Virus record (IMG/VR): IMGVR_UViG_2802429226_000012
Location: 1 to 7,863 of that record
Direction: 5' to 3' (one strand)
Source of the DNA: a virus
Lineage: Duplodnaviria > Heunggongvirae > Uroviricota > Caudoviricetes
Length of the DNA stretch: 7,863 bases
The notes beneath the pieces were generated by a model. It ran no database searches. It was not told the origin of the DNA and worked only from the letters and a program-made list of their open reading frames with translations. The position numbers and the translations under genes were made by a program. Positions 1 through 7,863 of the stretch are shown here, piece by piece; the first letter of the stretch is position 1, and every line of letters starts with the position of its first letter.

Positions 1-648
1 ATGGCAGCGACGCACACACTCCCTCTGGCGTCACCGGGCATGGCACGCATCTGCCTTTACGGGGATTTACAACGATTTGGCCGCCGCATCGACCTTCGTG
101 TAAAAACGGGGGCTGAAGCCATCCGGGCGTTGTCCACACAGCTCCCGGCGTTTCGTCAGAAACTGAATGAGGGCTGGTATCAGGTGCGCATTGCCGGGCG
201 TGATGCAGGCGAAAATGAATTATCTGCCCGTCTTAATGAGTCGCTGGCAAATGGTGCCGTGATCCACATTGTGCCGCGTCTGGCGGGAGCTAAAAGTGGC
301 GGTGTTTTTCAGGCAGTGCTGGGTGCGGCGCTGATTGCGGTGGCATGGTGGAACCCTGTGGGCTGGCTGGGTGCCGCGGCTGTATCGGGCATGTATGCGG
401 CAGGGGCCAGTATGATCCTGGGTGGTGTGGCCCAGATGCTGGCACCGAAAGCCCGGACGCCCACAGCGACCAGCACGGATAACGGTAAGCAGAACACCTA
501 TTTCTCATCACTGGATAACATGGTTGCCCAGGGCAATGTTCTGCCTGTTCTGTACGGTGAAATGCGCGTGGGGTCTCGTGTGGTTTCTCAGGAGATCAGC
601 ACGGCAGATGAAGGGGACGGTGGTCAGGTTGTGGTGATTGGCCGCTGA
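1..648 (+). CDS. I: Tail assembly protein I (lambda gpI-like); ATG at window position 1 appears to be the native start, stop TGA 646..648
   Basis: 215-aa ORF whose whole length (MAATHTLPLASPGMARICLYGDLQRFGRRIDLRV ... NGKQNTYFSSLDNMVAQGNVLPVLYGEMRVGSRVVSQEISTADEGDGGQVVVIGR) matches my recollection of lambda gpI; GC-rich, lies directly upstream of J as in lambda. Identity is from memory, not a search. Confidence 0.88.
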   Translation: MAATHTLPLASPGMARICLYGDLQRFGRRIDLRVKTGAEAIRALSTQLPAFRQKLNEGWYQVRIAGRDAGENELSARLNESLANGAVIHIVPRLAGAKSGGVFQAVLGAALIAVAWWNPVGWLGAAAVSGMYAAGASMILGGVAQMLAPKARTPTATSTDNGKQNTYFSSLDNMVAQGNVLPVLYGEMRVGSRVVSQEISTADEGDGGQVVVIGR

Positions 649-666
649 TGCAAAATATTTCATGTG

Positions 667-694
667 AAACCGCCTCCGGGCGGTTTTGTCGTTT
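667..694 (+). terminator. Short GC-rich hairpin (AAACCGCC-tccg-GGCGGTTT) followed by a T-rich tract in the I-J spacer; weak attenuator or mRNA-stabilising hairpin
   Basis: Perfect 8-bp inverted repeat with 4-nt loop at 667..686 followed by tgtcgttt. It sits within an operon between the I stop (648) and the J start (709), so it is probably not a full terminator. GGAG at 697..700 serves as RBS for J. Confidence 0.3.
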
Positions 695-708
695 ATGGAG
701 CATGACGA

Positions 709-3700
709 ATGGGCAAAGGAAGCAGTAAGGGGCATACCCCGCGCGAAGCGAAGGACAACCTGAAGTCCACGCAACTGCTGAGTGTGATTGATGCCATCAG
801 CGAAGGGCCGATTGAAGGTCCGGTGGATGGATTAAAAAGCGTGCTGCTGAACAGTACGCCGGTGCTGGACAGTGAGGGGAATACCAATATCTCCGGCGTC
901 ACGGTGGTGTTCCGGGCAGGCGAGCAGGAGCAGTCACCGCCGGAGGGATTTGAATCCTCCGGTTCCGAGACGGTGCTGGGTACGGAAGTGAAATATGACA
1001 CGCCGATCACCCGCACCATTACGTCGGCAAACATCGACCGTCTGCGCTTTACCTTCGGTGTACAGGCACTGGTGGAAACCACCTCAAAGGGTGACAGGAA
1101 TCCGTCGGAAGTCCGTCTGCTGGTTCAGATACAGCGTAACGGTGGCTGGGTGACGGAAAAAGACATCACCATTAAGGGCAAAACCACCTCGCAGTATCTG
1201 GCCTCGGTGGTGGTGGGTAACCTGCCGCCGCGCCCGTTTAATATCCGGATGCGCAGGATGACGCCGGACAGCACCACAGACCAGCTGCAGAACAAAACGC
1301 TCTGGTCGTCATACACCGAAATCATCGATGTGAAACAGTGCTACCCGAACACGGCACTGGTCGGCGTGCAGGTGGACTCGGAACAGTTCGGCAGCCAGCA
1401 GGTGAGCCGTAATTATCATCTTCGCGGGCGCATTCTGCAGGTGCCGTCGAACTATAACCCGCAGACGCGGCAATACAGCGGTATCTGGGACGGAACGTTT
1501 AAGCCAGCATACAGCAACAACATGGCCTGGTGTCTGTGGGATATGCTGACCCATCCGCGCTACGGCATGGGGAAGCGTCTCGGTGCGGCGGATGTGGACA
1601 AATGGGCGCTGTATGTCATCGGCCAGAATTGCGACCAGTCGGTGCCGGACGGCTTTGGCGGCACGGAGCCGCGCATCACCTGTAATGCGTACCTGACCAC
1701 ACAGCGCAAGGCGTGGGATGTGCTCAGTGATTTCTGCTCGGCGATGCGCTGTATGCCAGTATGGAACGGGCAGACGCTGACGTTCGTGCAGGACCGACCG
1801 TCGGATAAGGTGTGGACCTATAACCGCAGTAATGTGGTGATGCCGGATGATGGCGCACCGTTCCGCTACAGCTTCAGCGCCCTGAAAGACCGCCATAATG
1901 CCGTTGAGGTGAACTGGATTGACCCGAACAACGGCTGGGAGACGGCGACAGAGCTTGTGGAGGATACGCAGGCCATTGCCCGTTACGGTCGTAACGTCAC
2001 GAAGATGGATGCTTTTGGCTGTACCAGCCGGGGGCAGGCACACCGCGCCGGGCTGTGGCTGATTAAAACAGAACTGCTGGAAACGCAGACCGTGGACTTC
2101 AGCGTGGGGGCGGAAGGGCTTCGCCATGTACCGGGCGATGTCATTGAAATCTGCGATGATGACTATGCGGGTATCCGCATCGGCGGGCGCGTGCTTGCGG
2201 TAAACAGCCAGACCCGGACGCTGACGCTCGACCGTGAAATCACGCTGCCATCCTCCGGTACCACGCTGATAAGCCTGGTTGACGGAAGTGGCAATCCGGT
2301 CAGCGTGGAGGTTCAGTCCGTCACCGACGGCGTGAAGGTAAAAGTGAGCCGTGTTCCTGACGGTGTTGCTGAATACAGCGTATGGGGGCTGAAGCTGCCG
2401 ACGCTGCGCCAGCGTCTGTTCCGCTGTGTGAGTATCCGTGAGAACGATGACGGTACGTATGCCATCACTGCCGTGCAGCATGTACCGGAGAAAGAAGCCA
2501 TCGTGGATAACGGGGCGCACTTTGACGGCGACCAGAGTGGCACGGTGAATGGTGTCACGCCGCCAGCGGTGCAGCACCTGACTGCCGAAGTCACCGCAGA
2601 CAGCGGGGAATATCAGGTACTGGCGCGATGGGACACGCCGAAGGTGGTGAAGGGGGTGAGCTTTATGCTTCGCCTGACCGTGGCAGCGGATGACGGCAGT
2701 GAGCGGCTTGTCAGCACAGCCCGGACGACGGAAACCACATACCGCTTCAGGCAACTGGCGCTGGGGAACTACAGGCTGACAGTCCGGGCAGTAAATGCCT
2801 GGGGGCAGCAGGGGGATCCGGCGTCGGTATCGTTCCGGATTGCCGCACCGGCAGCGCCTGTCACTATTGAACTGATACCGGGGTATTTTCAGATAACGGC
2901 GGTCCCGAAACTGGCTGTATATGACCCGACGGTGCAGTTTGAGTTCTGGTTCTCGGAAAAGCAGATTATTGATATCAGGCAGGTTGAAACCAGCGCGCGT
3001 TATCTTGGTACGGCGCTGTACTGGATAGCCGCCAGTAGCAATATTAAGCCGGGTTATGATTATTACTTTTATATCCGCAGCGTGAACACCGTTGGTAAAT
3101 CGGCATTTGTGGAGGCCGTCGGTCGGGCGAGCGATGATGCGGAAGGTTATCTGAATTTTTATAAAGGGTTGATCAATAAAACGCATCTCGGCAAGGAGCT
3201 ACTGGAAAACTTTGAGCTGACGGAAGATAACGCCAGCAAACTGGAGGAGTTTTCGAAAGAGTGGAAAGACGCTAACGATAAATGGAATGCCATGTGGGGC
3301 GTCAAAATTGAGCAGACCAAAGACGGCAAACATTATGTCGCGGGTATTGGTCTCAGCATGGAGGACACGGAGGAAGGCAAGCTGAGCCAGTTTCTGGTTG
3401 CCGCTAACCGTATCGCGTTTATTGACCCGGCAAACGGGAATGAAACGCCGATGTTTGTGGCGCAGGGCAACCAGATATTCATGAACGACGTGTTCCTGAA
3501 GCGCCTGACAGCCCCCACCATTACCAGCGGTGGCAGTCCTCCGGTATTTTCCCTGACATCAGACGGAAAGCTGACCGCTAAAAATGCGGATATCAGTGGT
3601 AGTGTGAATGCGAACTCAGGAACGCTCAACAATGTCACGATTAACCAGAACTGTACGATTAAGGGCATGCTGGAGGCGACCCAGGTCAGAGGGGATTTCG

Positions 3701-4122
3701 TTAAAGCTGTATCAAAAGCCTTCCCGAAAAAAGTCGGTACGTGGGGTAACACGGAAACACCAAACGGTACGGTTACAGTCACCATCAGCGATGATCATAA
3801 CTTTGACCGCCAGATTATTATTCCGCCCATTATTTTTAACGGTATAGCGTATGACGATCCGGGGAGCGGAAATAACCCAGGAGGCACGCGATACACGGGT
3901 TATGGTTTTGAAGTTCGCAAAAACGGCGTATTAATCGCATCCAGAGAAACTAAAGGGGCCATTCCCGGTAGTTACAGTGCAGTTATTGATATGCCTAGTG
4001 GTGGTGGTAGCGTCACTCTGGAGTTTAAGGTTTTCCAGAAAGGCAATCAGGGGGCAGGCAATATCACCGACTGTACGGTGATTGTGACCAAAAAAGCCGC
4101 TTCCGGTATCAGTATCCGTTGA
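709..4122 (+). CDS. J: Host specificity protein J (central tail fibre / tail tip protein) with a divergent C-terminal receptor-binding region
   Basis: 1137-aa ORF; N-terminal and central sequence ([45 protein letters not shown] ... [43 protein letters not shown]) matches my recollection of lambda J (about 1130 aa). RBS GGAG 8 nt upstream of the ATG. The last roughly 130-150 aa (from about nt 3700) are AT-richer and do not match the lambda J C-terminus as I recall it. Confidence 0.95.
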
Positions 4123-4142
4123 AATATTTATAACCCCAATAC

Positions 4143-4170
4143 GGGCGCCAGAAATGGCGCCTTTTTTATT
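4143..4170 (+). terminator. Rho-independent terminator-like hairpin immediately after J
   Basis: GGGCGCC-agaaat-GGCGCC stem-loop (4143..4161) followed by TTTTTTATTT (4162..4171), 21 nt after the J stop codon and 12 nt before the stf start. Confidence 0.55.
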
Positions 4171-4182
4171 TGTGGAGTGAGT

Positions 4183-6564
4183 ATGGCAGTACAGATTTCA
4201 GGTGTGCTGAAAGATGGTGCGGGAAAACCAATACAGAACTGCACTATTCAACTGAAGGCAAAGCGTAACAGCACCACGGTACTGGTGAACACGGTGGCCT
4301 CTGAAAATCCGGATGAAGCCGGGCGTTACAGCATTGATGTTGAGTATGGCCAGTACAGCGTTATCCTGCTGGTTGAAGGTTTTCCGCCTTCACATGCCGG
4401 GACCATTACCGTCTATGAAGGCTCCAGACCAGGTACGCTGAATGATTTTCTCGGTGCCATGACGGAAGATGATGTCATGCCGGAGGCATTGCGTCGTTTT
4501 GAGGAAATGGTGGAAGAAGCGGCACGCAACGCTGAAGCCGCCTCTCAGAGCGCAGCGGCGGCAAAGAAATCCGAAACTGCAGCGGCATCATCGAAGAATG
4601 CGGCGAAAACCTCAGAAACGAATGCAGCTAACAGCGCACAGGCGGCAGCGGCCTCGCAGACTGCATCGGCAAACTCCGCGACAGCAGCCAAAAAATCAGA
4701 AACCAACGCGAAAAACAGCGAGACAGCCGCAAAGACGAGCGAAACCAACGCAAAGTCCAGCCAGACAGCAGCGAAAACCAGCGAAACGAATGCCAAAGCC
4801 AGTGAAACTGCGGCGAAAAACAGCCAGGATGCAGCAGCCGAAAGCGAGAGTGACGCAGCTGGTTCTGCAAGTGCGGCGGCTTCTTCTGCCACTGCATCAG
4901 CCAACAGTCAAAAAGCTGCAAAAACCAGCGAAACCAACGCAAAGTCCAGCCAGACGGCAGCGAAAACCAGCGAAACGAATGCCAAAGCCAGTGAAACTGC
5001 GGCGAAAAGCAGTCAGGATGCAGCAGCCGAAAGCGAGAGTGCTGCAGCTGGCTCTGCAAGCGCGGCGGCTGCTTCTGCCACTGCATCAGCCAACAGTCAA
5101 AAAGCTGCAAAAACCAGTGAAACCAACGCAAAGGCGAGCGAGACTGCGGCGGCTAACTCGGCGAAAGCATCCGCTGCAAGCCAGACGGCTGCAAAAGCAA
5201 GTGAAGACGCAGCCAGAGAGTATGCAAGCCAGGCTGCGGAGCCGTATAAACAAGTATTGCAGCCGCTTCCCGATGTGTGGATACCGTTTAACGATTCACT
5301 GGATATGATTACGGGCTTTTCGCCGTCATATAAAAAGATTGTTATTGGTGATGATGAAATAACAATGCCTGGCGACAAGATTGTAAAGTTTAAACGCGCA
5401 TCAAAAGCAACTTACATTAATAAATCTGGTGTGCTGACAGAGGCTGCAATCGATGAACCTCGCTTTGAAAAGTATGGATTGCTGATTGAAGGGCAGCGTA
5501 CAAACCTGTTAATAAACAGCACAAATCCATCAAAGTGGAACAAGTCATCAAATATGATTTTAAATACATCAGGTGTAGATGATTTTGGTTTCCAGTACGC
5601 AAAATTCACATTAAAACCAGAAATGGTGGGGCAAACCTCAGCCATTTCTATTGTCACAGTATCTGGAAGCAAAGGATATGATGTTACCGGCGATGAAAAG
5701 TATGTAACTATCTCATGCAGGGTACAAAGTGGGACTCCAAATTTAAGATGTCGATTACGATTTGAAGAATATGATGGATCTACCTACAAATTCCTGGGTG
5801 ATGCTTACTTAAATATGACAGATTTATCGATTGATAAAACTGGCGGCGCTGCAAGTCGTATTACTGCAAGGGCTGTTAAAAATGAAGCAAGCAAATGGAT
5901 TTTCTTTGAGGCAACAATTAAGGCACTTGATACAGAAAATATGATCGGTGCGATGGTGCAATATGCACCACCAAAAGGGGGAAGCACTGGTGCAGATGAT
6001 TATATTTATGTTGCAACTCCTCAGGTCGAAGGCGGTTCGTGCGCTTCTTCGTTTATTATTACTGAGGCAACGCCAGTCACAAGAGCCAGTGATATGGTGA
6101 ATATACCAACAAATAACAATATCGGTACACCACCTTTAACATTTCTAGCTGAAGTTCATACAAACTGGAACGAAACGCCAAATGCAGCACCACGAATTTT
6201 TGATACCAGTGGTGGGAGCACAACTCCGGGTCAATATATAAGTGTTGCTATTAGTTCAACATTATTTCCTAGTGTTACGATGTACAATAAAAACGGTAGT
6301 ACAGTAGCCGCCGTATCGCCAGTATTATTTGAACAAAAATCTGTTCTTGGATTTGTTTTAAATGAATCTGGTAATGTGCATTTCGTTAGCAATGCTCAGC
6401 ATGGAACTCCTAAAACTACGGATCATGTCGGTGTTAAATCTGGTTATTTCTTCAGGATTGGTGGGCAGACTAATAGCGGCCTACGTCATCTTTTCGGTCA
6501 CATTCGTAATTTTCGTATATGGCATAAAGAATTAACCGATGCGCAAATGGGAGAGATAATATAA
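4183..6564 (+). CDS. stf: Side tail fibre protein (lambda Stf-like N-terminus; repeat-rich shaft; distinct C-terminal LamG/concanavalin-A-like receptor-binding domain)
   Basis: ORF track gives 4177..6564 from a GTG; I prefer the ATG at 4183 because the product then begins MAVQISGVLKDGAGKPIQNCTIQLKAKRNSTTVLVNTVASENPDEAGRYSIDVEYGQYSVIL, matching the lambda Stf N-terminus from memory, and GGAG at 4173..4176 is correctly spaced. Middle region has KTSETNAK-type Ala/Ser/Thr repeats. C-terminal end FGHIRNFRIWHKELTDAQMGEI resembles the C-terminal consensus of LamG-like (Laminin_G_3) domains (F-G-x-I-D-E-V-R-I-Y-N-R-A-L-S-x-x-E-I). Stop TAA 6562..6564. Confidence 0.85.
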   Translation: MAVQISGVLKDGAGKPIQNCTIQLKAKRNSTTVLVNTVASENPDEAGRYSIDVEYGQYSVILLVEGFPPSHAGTITVYEGSRPGTLNDFLGAMTEDDVMPEALRRFEEMVEEAARNAEAASQSAAAAKKSETAAASSKNAAKTSETNAANSAQAAAASQTASANSATAAKKSETNAKNSETAAKTSETNAKSSQTAAKTSETNAKASETAAKNSQDAAAESESDAAGSASAAASSATASANSQKAAKTSETNAKSSQTAAKTSETNAKASETAAKSSQDAAAESESAAAGSASAAAASATASANSQKAAKTSETNAKASETAAANSAKASAASQTAAKASEDAAREYASQAAEPYKQVLQPLPDVWIPFNDSLDMITGFSPSYKKIVIGDDEITMPGDKIVKFKRASKATYINKSGVLTEAAIDEPRFEKYGLLIEGQRTNLLINSTNPSKWNKSSNMILNTSGVDDFGFQYAKFTLKPEMVGQTSAISIVTVSGSKGYDVTGDEKYVTISCRVQSGTPNLRCRLRFEEYDGSTYKFLGDAYLNMTDLSIDKTGGAASRITARAVKNEASKWIFFEATIKALDTENMIGAMVQYAPPKGGSTGADDYIYVATPQVEGGSCASSFIITEATPVTRASDMVNIPTNNNIGTPPLTFLAEVHTNWNETPNAAPRIFDTSGGSTTPGQYISVAISSTLFPSVTMYNKNGSTVAAVSPVLFEQKSVLGFVLNESGNVHFVSNAQHGTPKTTDHVGVKSGYFFRIGGQTNSGLRHLFGHIRNFRIWHKELTDAQMGEII
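4726..5150 (+). repeat. In-frame tandem direct repeat, 189-bp unit (63 aa), about 2.2 copies, inside the stf shaft region; built from shorter roughly 42-bp (14-aa) sub-repeats
   Basis: gaaaccaacgcaaagtccagccagac occurs at 4741..4766 and 4930..4955; aaaaccagcgaaaccaacgcaaag at 4921..4944 and, with one mismatch, at 5110..5133 (offsets of 189). Copies are near-identical over most of the unit. Encoded repeat is AKTSETNAKSSQTAAKTSETNAKASETAAK[N/S]SQDAAAESES[D/A]AAGSASAAA[S/A]SATASANSQKA. Confidence 0.85.
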
Positions 6565-6845
6565 TGCGAGATTTAATTATCAAATTCACAGACAAGGCCG
6601 ACTTTTCGGCCTTTATGGATAGCATTGGTTATGACGATGACGAGGTGATGCAGAACAATGTTCTCATTGACGTGATAGGTAACGTGTATAAAGAAACCGG
6701 AGAACTGACTGAAGATGGCGAACCGGTATGTGTTAAGGAAGACGGATATTTTGTAAATGTGCGCATCATTAATGATGTGAAAACACCGTCAATGTTCGAT
6801 GAATACGCGGTTGTTGTTGAGCATCAACTTCGTGGCTGGATGTGA
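6564..6845 (+). CDS. Small strongly acidic protein of unknown function, translationally coupled to stf; occupies the position of a tail-fibre assembly gene but is not recognisably Tfa-like
   Basis: 93-aa ORF; ATG at 6564 overlaps the stf stop (TAATG). GGAGAG 8 nt upstream. About 21 Asp/Glu against about 8 Lys/Arg by my count. AT-rich codon usage like the stf C-terminal domain. No similarity to lambda Tfa that I can recognise. Confidence 0.6.
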   Translation: MRDLIIKFTDKADFSAFMDSIGYDDDEVMQNNVLIDVIGNVYKETGELTEDGEPVCVKEDGYFVNVRIINDVKTPSMFDEYAVVVEHQLRGWM

Positions 6846-6854
6846 GGCAGAAAA

Positions 6855-7559
6855 ATGGCTACATCGACAGTAATTCCAGGAGATATCACCACGCTAAAGG
6901 GAGAAGTCACTAAAACTAAGGAAGATATTTCCTCAATTAACGGAAAAGTATCAACGCTTCAGACTGATATGACCAGTGCAAAGCAGGATATCAGCTCCAG
7001 ATACACAAAAACTGAAGTTGATAATAAGCTGAAAAACAAAGTGGAAGCGAACGATCTGGAAAGCGGTCGTTATGGCGGTGATTTTTACCCGCTGACAGGT
7101 CGAGAAGCGTTTTATTTATGGAATTTGGCCACGACTACAGCGGCGGCAAACCTTTATCTTAATCCTGACCCCGCAATTTCGTCTGTACTGCGGTCAACAT
7201 CGTCTATTCGCTATAAACATTCAGTAGAGACGATAGATTCAGAGCACGCCGATCTCATTTTCAAGATGCGCCCTGTGTGGTACAGGTCGCAATGCGAAAA
7301 TGACAGGCGCGATTGGGGATTCTATGGATTGATTGCCGAGGAAGTAGGAGAAATTGCCCCTCAGTTTGTTCACTGGCGACCAGCTAACGAAGATGATGCA
7401 CCGGAAACCATTTCCAGCAATGGCCTTGTTGCCGAAGGTGTAATGTACGAACGTCTGGTTGTTCCACTGATTCACCATATCCAGAAACTGACTGAAAGAG
7501 TTGATGAACTTGAGTCAGAATTAAAGTTGTTATTAACTTCCCGAAGCGATATTGGATAA
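6855..7559 (+). CDS. Short tail-fibre-like protein with C-terminal peptidase S74 intramolecular chaperone (endosialidase-chaperone type) autoproteolytic domain
   Basis: 234-aa ORF. N-terminal half has fibre-shaft-like motifs (ITTLKGEVTKTKEDISSINGKVSTLQTDMTSAKQDISSRYTKTEVDNKLKNKVEANDL). C-terminal half (SSIRYKHSVETIDSEHADLIFKMRPVWYRSQ ... DWGFYGLIAEEVGEIAPQFV ... GLVAEGVMYERLVVPLIHHIQKLTERVDELESELKLL) fits the Peptidase_S74 consensus (S-D-x-x-L-K-E-N-I ... R-P-V-x-Y ... G-F-I-A-Q-E-V ... Y-x-x-L-V-P-L-L-I-x-A-I-K-E-L). Ser116 and Lys121 are spaced as in the catalytic Ser-Lys dyad. Confidence 0.8.
   Translation: MATSTVIPGDITTLKGEVTKTKEDISSINGKVSTLQTDMTSAKQDISSRYTKTEVDNKLKNKVEANDLESGRYGGDFYPLTGREAFYLWNLATTTAAANLYLNPDPAISSVLRSTSSIRYKHSVETIDSEHADLIFKMRPVWYRSQCENDRRDWGFYGLIAEEVGEIAPQFVHWRPANEDDAPETISSNGLVAEGVMYERLVVPLIHHIQKLTERVDELESELKLLLTSRSDIG
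7200..7556 (+). other. Peptidase S74 / intramolecular chaperone domain within the 6855..7559 CDS; predicted autocleavage at Ser116 (codon 7200..7202) with Lys121 (codon 7215..7217)
   Basis: Motif alignment to the S74 family consensus as described for the parent CDS; the S-x-x-x-x-K spacing matches the Ser/Lys dyad arrangement described for endosialidase C-terminal chaperone domains. Confidence 0.7.
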
Positions 7560-7569
7560 AGGAGGAGTC

Positions 7570-7863
7570 ATGGATATAACACCTTTCCTTCACGCGCTTT
7601 GTGCTGTGGCTGCGCAGGTACTGGTTGGTCTTTTTACCGGAAACTGGGCTTACGGGGCGATAGCCGGTTGTACATTCTTCATTGCGCGGGAACACACCCA
7701 GGCAGAATATCGCTGGATTGAAATGTTCGGGCATGGCAAGCGGATTAACATGCCGTGGTGGGGCGGTTTTGATCCACGTGCATGGGATGTGGCAAGCCTG
7801 ATGGATTTTGCTGTGCCGGTGGTGGCGTGTCTGCTGGTCTGGCTGTTGGTTAATCGCGGGTGA
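7570..7863 (+). CDS. Small predicted inner-membrane protein (2-3 hydrophobic segments), function unknown; possible moron or accessory gene
   Basis: ORF track starts at a TTG (7552) that overlaps the upstream stop; I prefer the ATG at 7570, preceded by a strong SD (AAAGGAGGAG, 7558..7567). 97-aa product with hydrophobic stretches FLHALCAVAAQVLVGLFTGNWAYGAIAGCTFFIA and FAVPVVACLLVWLLV. GC-rich, unlike the two upstream genes. Stop TGA at 7861..7863, the last codon of the window. Confidence 0.55.
   Translation: MDITPFLHALCAVAAQVLVGLFTGNWAYGAIAGCTFFIAREHTQAEYRWIEMFGHGKRINMPWWGGFDPRAWDVASLMDFAVPVVACLLVWLLVNRG

Follow-up and report, generated by a model that had tools for sequence, protein, structure and literature searches.

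A small acidic protein gene found essentially one-to-one with a lectin-like phage fibre tip, and its probable role as an accessory protein of that tip

Introduction

Three solutions to the assembly of phage tail fibres have been described, namely the separate protein Tfa that serves the lambda side tail fibre Stf, the proteins gp38 and gp57A of the T4 fibres, and the C-terminal Peptidase_S74 domain of self-chaperoning fibres. Lateral fibres with lectin-like tips, which rank with the most frequent determinants of host range in the siphoviruses of Escherichia coli and Salmonella as well as in T5-like and rV5-like phages and lambdoid prophages, have a different gene next to them. This gene, denoted here ORF93, is an open reading frame (ORF) for a protein of 93 amino acids (aa) and occupies positions 6564-6845 of the plus strand in a 7,863-nucleotide stretch of caudoviricete DNA (IMG/VR record IMGVR_UViG_2802429226_000012, positions 1 to 7,863; hereafter, the window), just downstream of the side tail fibre gene, stf. 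The window represents the distal end of a lambdoid tail operon. An earlier, sequence-only reading of this DNA offered two hypotheses on ORF93, under which the protein is either a chaperone or assembly factor for the LamG-like fibre tip or an acidic DNA mimic, that is, an anti-defence moron that happens to adjoin the fibre gene. The comparison of the loci that contain this gene suggests that ORF93 is probably the tip's own helper.

Association of ORF93 with a single type of fibre tip

The genomic context of ORF93 was examined in a first set of 83 loci that includes 80 IMG/VR prophage loci, phage 21, the T5-like phage Bas32 (IrisVonRoten) and the rV5-like phage Bas49 (EmilHeitz). Without exception in this set, a homologue of ORF93 directly follows a fibre gene whose product matches residues 369-795 of stf with its C-terminal 427 aa. 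In Bas32, for example, Gp23 is homologous to ORF93 (43% identity) and the tip of Gp22 is 55% identical to the stf tip. The same arrangement is found in Warwickvirus tunus, Dhillonvirus KarlBarth, Nonagvirus JenP2, PhiR55_1 and the T5-like phage AKFV33; the small ORFs of PhiR55_1 and AKFV33, which appeared to be exceptions, are too divergent to be detected with tblastn and match the family profile (E ~1e-16).

At a level of about 30% identity, the arrangement is retained in two metagenomic contigs, 24 environmental viral contigs and one of two Celeribacter prophages. At these distant loci, family members of 69-111 aa are encoded after a protein in which the conserved motifs recur and the C-terminus has a strand of the LamG type, with a junction that is either a 4-nucleotide (nt) overlap or a gap of at most 10 nt. 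The second Celeribacter prophage, in which merely a 51-aa ORF is present upstream, looks degraded. Taken over the approximately 110 loci with readable upstream sequence, the family gene directly follows a fibre with a GTA-spike-fibre domain and a ConA/LamG-like C-terminus, this one degraded prophage excepted. The converse search of the phage collection, with the LamG domain as the tblastn query, yielded 204 records compared to 179 for ORF93, with the same taxonomic breakdown. The lineages covered include lambdoid phages, Drexlerviridae, Dhillonvirus, Nonagvirus, T5-like and rV5-like phages, environmental contigs and a Celeribacter prophage. Thus, ORF93 is essentially in one-to-one association with this tip type in at least six phage lineages as well as in distant environmental phages.

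The two genes meet in a coupling junction (6550-6566, plus strand) where the stf stop codon (TAA, 6562-6564) and the ATG of ORF93 (6564-6566) overlap by one base, the TAATG already pointed out in the sequence-only reading; a Shine-Dalgarno-like GGAGAG (6550-6555) is located 10 nt upstream of the ORF93 start, inside the last codons of stf. Each of the 84 junctions that could be read has an overlap of either 1 or 4 nt.

Tip and ORF93 as a mobile cassette

The part of stf that encodes the shaft has a guanine plus cytosine (GC) content of 53-57% and the membrane-protein gene near the end of the window 54%, compared to 38-42% from position ~5300, where the tip begins, through the end of ORF93. This block of low GC (5300-6850) is consistent with horizontal acquisition of a cassette consisting of the tip and its helper. 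The tip part of the cassette, a GTA-head-spike-fibre domain followed by a C-terminal ConA/LamG-like domain, is placed at 5300-6561 on the plus strand. The tip occurs on at least three kinds of anchors, namely the lambda-Stf type (PF08400), PF03406, and T5-like or rV5-like fibres that have neither.

Two Vequintavirus fibres, rV5 gp41 (L118, DQ832317) and EmilHeitz gp26 (L003), share 90% identity along 1050 aa, beyond which they differ: gp41 ends in a Peptidase_S74 intramolecular chaperone, with no small ORF, and gp26 ends in a LamG-type tip that is followed by an ORF93-like gene and a terminator. This exchange of C-terminal modules can be viewed as a natural experiment for the helper hypothesis. 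Among the T5-like phages, the fibres of T5 and DT57C contain S74; the LtfA-type proximal fibres of AKFV33 and Bas32 lack it and are accompanied by the small ORF. In phage 21 and in IdasGreatGrand, a temperate Escherichia phage, the ORF93-family gene resides in the slot that tfa occupies in the lambda gene order. The fibres with this tip type are those that have neither Tfa nor S74 and always bring ORF93 along, and the tip and ORF93 move as one cassette that replaces the tips with intramolecular chaperones.

ORF93 is a genuine, conserved gene

ORF93 is a real gene that evolves under purifying selection. The ratio of nonsynonymous to synonymous substitution rates (dN/dS), estimated from 41 distinct alleles, is ~0.31; the length is 279 nt in each of the 70 lambdoid alleles measured, with no insertions or deletions. 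Among 5426 complete E. coli genomes, 996 (~18%) contain ORF93-related DNA, and there the Prokaryotic Genome Annotation Pipeline labels the product 'hypothetical protein'; the family carries this annotation in all records examined, save for one RefSeq record ('tail fiber protein'). The small gene is not mentioned in the publications on DT57C genetics and cryo-electron microscopy, BF23, the BASEL collection of 2021, AKFV33, rV5 and marine coliphages, nor in the 2024 Nature paper on base editing in which chimeric lambda side tail fibres were engineered, and the BASEL paper of 2025 (PMC11990801) assigns it no role, save for an apparent slip between Gp22 and Gp23. The family has already been catalogued and is uncharacterised: residues 1-93 of ORF93 match the full-length profile of PHROG 1361 (positions 1-92 of 92; E 2.2e-43), a group annotated as of unknown function. 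A representative library of 1.84 billion proteins contains 51 relatives of ORF93, and a search with the family profile yielded 3011 clusters. Two large proteins matched in the representative search, P0159 and P0151, were set aside; in the latter, the match falls on repeated Ig-like modules and is due to chance rather than to a fusion. Two further distant members (P0149 and P0157) were used to scan viral contigs, with no matches. Around ORF93, there are no Rfam matches and no repeats, and promoter-like or terminator-like sites are not in excess.

Across loci L004-L083, ORF93 is a mosaic, with an N-terminal half that co-varies with stf aa 676-755 and C-terminal variants that track the downstream allele (234 or 346 aa). 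The invariant centre of the protein (GNVYKETGEL...DGYFVN) may be a recombination joint between the modules.

Protein properties and predicted fold

As had been noted from the sequence, the protein is small and strongly acidic, with 20 Asp and Glu compared to 8 Lys and Arg residues, a net charge of -12 and an isoelectric point (pI) of 4.13; acidity is a property of the entire family (pI 4.05-4.45). The AlphaFold2 (AF2) model, which was built from an alignment of 23 sequences, is a small alpha/beta domain with a mean predicted local distance difference test score (pLDDT) of 82, in which a strand (residues 2-8) is followed by two helices (11-20 and 27-32) and four strands (33-68). The core comprises aa 1-68, and the tail (69-93) is of low confidence and flexible in the model, yet conserved. 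D3, G39, G61, N65 and R67 are invariant in the family, and nearly all members terminate in P-x-R-x-W plus one residue (PxRxW-x-COOH), this end being QLRGWM in ORF93.

Searches of Pfam, NCBIfam and PDB sequences with ORF93 alone and with the family alignment gave nothing above noise (CIS_spike_tip, E 0.14; telomerase p19, E 0.03). The lack of recognisable Tfa motifs reported previously holds, given that neither ORF93 nor the 23 family members match PF02413 in Pfam up to E 1 and that there is no Tfa match in NCBIfam. PF13884 (Peptidase_S74) is matched neither by ORF93 nor by stf, and the gp38 and gp57A families are not among the matches in the Pfam scan of ORF93. Homology to a characterised unrelated family, by which the sequence-only reading was to be judged, was not found in these searches, the match being to PHROG 1361.

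The lectin-like tip of the stf protein

The stf gene (4177-6564, plus strand) encodes a protein of 795 aa that matches PF08400 (E 8e-67), PHROG 1419 over the full length, and NF048003. It consists of a lambda-Stf-type N-terminal anchor (aa 3-133), a repetitive Ala-rich shaft (aa ~110-350) and the tip, which starts at aa ~370. Within the tip, NF048003 (GTA_spike_fiber, NCBIfam) is matched at aa 436-637 (E 2e-16), and the sole relative by sequence in the PDB is Rcc01080 of RcGTA (6tb9). Laminin_G_3 is matched at the C-terminal end of homologues, and the C-terminus of Bas32 Gp22 was independently described as a galectin-like domain (PMC11990801). The shaft-encoding region (4500-5250, aa 110-350) is made of near-identical repeats rich in Ala, Ser and Thr (SETNAKSSQTAAKTSETNAKASETAAK...) that give rise to long spurious ORFs in other frames and on the minus strand.

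Two segments of the tip, aa 456-615 and 676-755, are hypervariable among the lambdoid loci (~35-50% mean pairwise identity), and conservation is seen at aa 356-455, 616-675 and in the last 40 aa. The hypervariable segments are the receptor-facing parts. ORF93 itself remains 81-98% identical. In the AF2 model of the tip monomer, the variable jelly-roll core is confidently predicted and the lowest confidence (pLDDT <50) falls on the most conserved parts (aa ~396-446, 621-640 and 765-795). That the conserved segments could not be placed in a monomer suggests contacts that a monomer cannot satisfy, and these segments, all within stf aa 396-795 (5362-6561), are candidate sites of contact between chains or with ORF93.

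Proposed role of ORF93 and the alternatives

We consider it moderately probable that ORF93 is the cognate accessory or assembly protein of the tip made of the GTA-spike-fibre and ConA/LamG-like domains, and belongs to a family apart from Tfa, gp38 and S74. Under this scenario, ORF93 would be made in step with the fibre by stop/start-coupled translation, which would provide roughly one copy per fibre chain. We infer that it physically binds those parts of the tip that form the conserved framework, namely stf aa 396-455 and 616-675 together with the last 40 aa, probably via its conserved, flexible C-terminal strand and the PxRxW-COOH end, that it promotes correct folding or assembly of the tip on the trimeric shaft, and that it may then leave the finished fibre. 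The limitation of contacts to the conserved framework would account for the conservation of ORF93 in the face of receptor-binding loops that diverge to ~40% identity. The task would be akin to that of Tfa for the lambda Stf, gp38 and gp57A for the T4 fibres and the C-terminal S74 domain in self-chaperoning fibres. Tip and helper would be exchanged among phages as a single cassette. Of the two hypotheses in the sequence-only reading, the chaperone or assembly factor is the one best supported by comparative genomics, in particular by the one-to-one link with the tip, the cassette and the tfa slot, all of which is evidence of linkage.

Several observations weigh against a helper of this kind. ORF93 has no similarity in sequence or fold to any known fibre chaperone in the comparisons with Pfam, NCBIfam, PDB and structures. 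ORF93 and the tip co-vary (rho 0.54, stf aa 676-755), but this signal is inseparable from physical linkage and was rejected as evidence. The only phage with a homologue for which a virion proteome was found is AKFV33, where four gel bands were analysed and a 10-kDa protein was out of reach; a shotgun proteome exists for rV5, which has the S74 allele and no ORF93 homologue. Finally, the head-spike fibre of RcGTA, which is related to the tip, works as a single subunit (PMC7296036), so that a lectin tip may not need a trimerisation chaperone.

The last point is also an argument for a structural subunit that is retained on the mature fibre, for instance, as a cap or clamp that keeps three monomeric lectin domains together where the coiled-coil shaft ends, because a tip with a monomeric homologue would have less need of a folding helper (PMC7296036). 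Synteny, coupling and the cassette speak for such a subunit in the same way as for a helper; coupled translation at close to 1:1 would suit a stoichiometric component, and the conserved PxRxW-x-COOH terminus resembles a permanent docking peptide. A further point in its favour is that ORF137 of AKFV33 (784 aa, ~85 kDa as estimated) migrated at 95.8 kDa in the published gel, but the discrepancy is within the normal error of SDS-PAGE. Furthermore, no virion proteome, among those available, none of which is adequate for so small a protein, lists an ORF93 homologue, and the published AlphaFold-Multimer model describes the Bas32 branched fibre in terms of Gp22 and Gp24 alone and, save for one apparent slip, gives Gp23 no role (PMC11990801). 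A retained subunit is the main rival to a transient helper, and the less probable of the two. The position of the gene in many coliphages, between the gene for the proximal fibre and that for a distal one, which begins 9-12 nt further on with M-x-T-x-T-x-IP-x-DI-x-LK, together with the C-terminal variants of ORF93 that track the downstream allele, could point to an adaptor through which the branch fibre (ORF234 in the window, LtfB-type) docks on the proximal one, in the manner of the T4 hinge proteins gp35 and gp36. Such a function is improbable given that phage 21, EmilHeitz and every environmental and Celeribacter locus have a family member yet no distal fibre, that the LtfB-type N-terminus is found in the fused LtfAB proteins of DT530 and DT571/2, and that the literature on DT57C describes no ORF93-like gene; adjacency alone suffices for the variants of ORF93 to track both the downstream allele and the tip.

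Many anti-restriction factors are small and acidic, and the idea of a DNA mimic or anti-defence moron merely adjoining the fibre gene derives from acidity only, that is, from the charge and pI given above and the conservation of acidity in the family. The strict association with structural genes contradicts it, in that ORF93 is an obligate neighbour of one tip type rather than an occasional insertion, and is located in the late tail operon and coupled to the fibre gene, with neither a promoter nor a terminator of its own. The predicted fold, a compact alpha/beta domain instead of a DNA-like rod of charge, would also speak against a mimic. With no homology or structural match to known mimics either, this second hypothesis of the sequence-only reading finds no support and is highly improbable.

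An accessory protein of the tip remains the preferred interpretation, and its stronger form can be put forward only tentatively, as the less probable proposition. In that form, ORF93 would found an unrecognised class of fibre-tip partners with a fold of their own, either a new intermolecular chaperone or a permanent clamp on three monomeric lectin domains, and would be obligatory in every fibre tipped by GTA-spike and LamG domains, from coliphages to alphaproteobacterial prophages. If this is true, transplantation of these tips, which bind O-antigen or other glycans, onto engineered phages or delivery particles would fail in the absence of ORF93, and the small gene would belong to the minimal cassette for the fibre swaps by which phages or particles are retargeted; the family would also amount to a fourth, structurally unrelated solution of fibre assembly beside Tfa, gp38/gp57A and the S74 domains. 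The role is readily testable, given that the gene is carried by the model phages phage 21, Bas32, tunus and IdasGreatGrand.

Organization of the window and the branched fibre

The window starts with a gene for an I-like protein (1-648), followed by J (709-4122) and by a terminator-like hairpin (4143-4162) located between J and stf; the phage 21 annotation also has a terminator at this spot. The closest cultured relative is IdasGreatGrand, which is 98.5% identical over 6000-7848, encodes an identical ORF93, and has the gene order J, lom, stf, ORF93, ORF234, membrane protein, integrase region. There is no lom between J and stf in the window; both IdasGreatGrand and PhiR55_1 have lom at this position.

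The gene that follows ORF93, which the sequence-only reading overlooked, encodes a second, branching fibre. ORF234 (6855-7559, plus strand) begins 9 nt past the ORF93 stop and encodes a short distal (branch) fibre that includes a coiled coil as well as, at the C-terminal end, an intramolecular chaperone of the Peptidase_S74 type (aa 116-172; PF13884, E 4e-6), with a C-terminal match to PHROG 3299 and a match to T5 pb1 (8hqz). At the N-terminus it has the docking motif MATSTVIPGDITTLK, which recurs in the 346-aa prophage allele, AKFV33 orf135, Bas32 Gp24 and the LtfB part of the fused LtfAB proteins of DT530 and DT571/2. Although ORF234 resembles a fragment, it is a conserved allele of the distal branch fibre, 93-97% identical in ~45 loci, and the 346-aa allele fills the same slot in other prophages. 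After autocleavage, ~113 aa of ORF234 would remain, with no obvious receptor-binding domain. These sequence features indicate that the fibre encoded in the window is branched, as in DT57C and Bas32.

The last gene (7570-7863, plus strand) encodes a small membrane protein of 97 aa that matches PHROG 1443 (E 7e-59) and, as follows from the phage 21 annotation, is a homologue of CPT_21_24, with two transmembrane domains; it is the conserved final gene of the block. The ORF was listed from TTG 7552, and ATG 7570, which is preceded by a strong AGGAGG, is almost certainly the start.

Comparison with known systems

Among the described systems, RcGTA Rcc01080 (NF048003; PDB 6tb9) is comparable to the fibre rather than to ORF93, in that the first domain of the stf tip belongs to the same family; Rcc01080 is a monomer on the capsid, and the head spike fibre binds capsular polysaccharide (PMC7296036), whereas the stf tip sits on a trimeric tail fibre. 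The T5-like branched fibres (DT57C LtfA/LtfB; Bas32 Gp22/Gp24) resemble the layout of the window, with a proximal and a distal fibre and a shared N-terminal docking motif, but the published descriptions give the small gene no role and, in the case of DT57C, describe no such gene.

The Peptidase_S74 domain (endosialidase, T5 pb1, DT57C LtfA/LtfB) is linked to ORF93 by the near-identical fibres that end either in S74 or in a LamG tip with the ORF93 gene. The difference is that S74 is a fused, autocleaving domain whereas ORF93 is a separate polypeptide; a true S74 is present next to it, in ORF234. The T4 proteins gp38 and gp57A are, as proposed for ORF93, small accessory proteins devoted to fibre assembly. 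In T2-type phages, gp38 stays on the tip, which illustrates the alternative between a chaperone and a retained subunit; the gp38 adhesins are hypervariable, however, and ORF93 is conserved. As for gp57A, it is an all-helical oligomer, in contrast to the alpha/beta fold predicted for ORF93.

In its genomic setting, ORF93 resembles lambda Tfa and its relatives P2 G and Mu U (PF02413, Caudo_TAP), with the gene immediately after the side tail fibre gene, tightly coupled to it and co-inherited with the tip. At 93 aa, compared to ~175-200 aa, ORF93 is half the size of Tfa and has no sequence match to it. Tfa combines a conserved N-terminal domain with a variable, tip-specific C-terminal domain, whereas ORF93 is uniformly conserved and has no hypervariable region, and its partner is a lectin-like jelly-roll tip rather than a tip of the Stf/gpH type.

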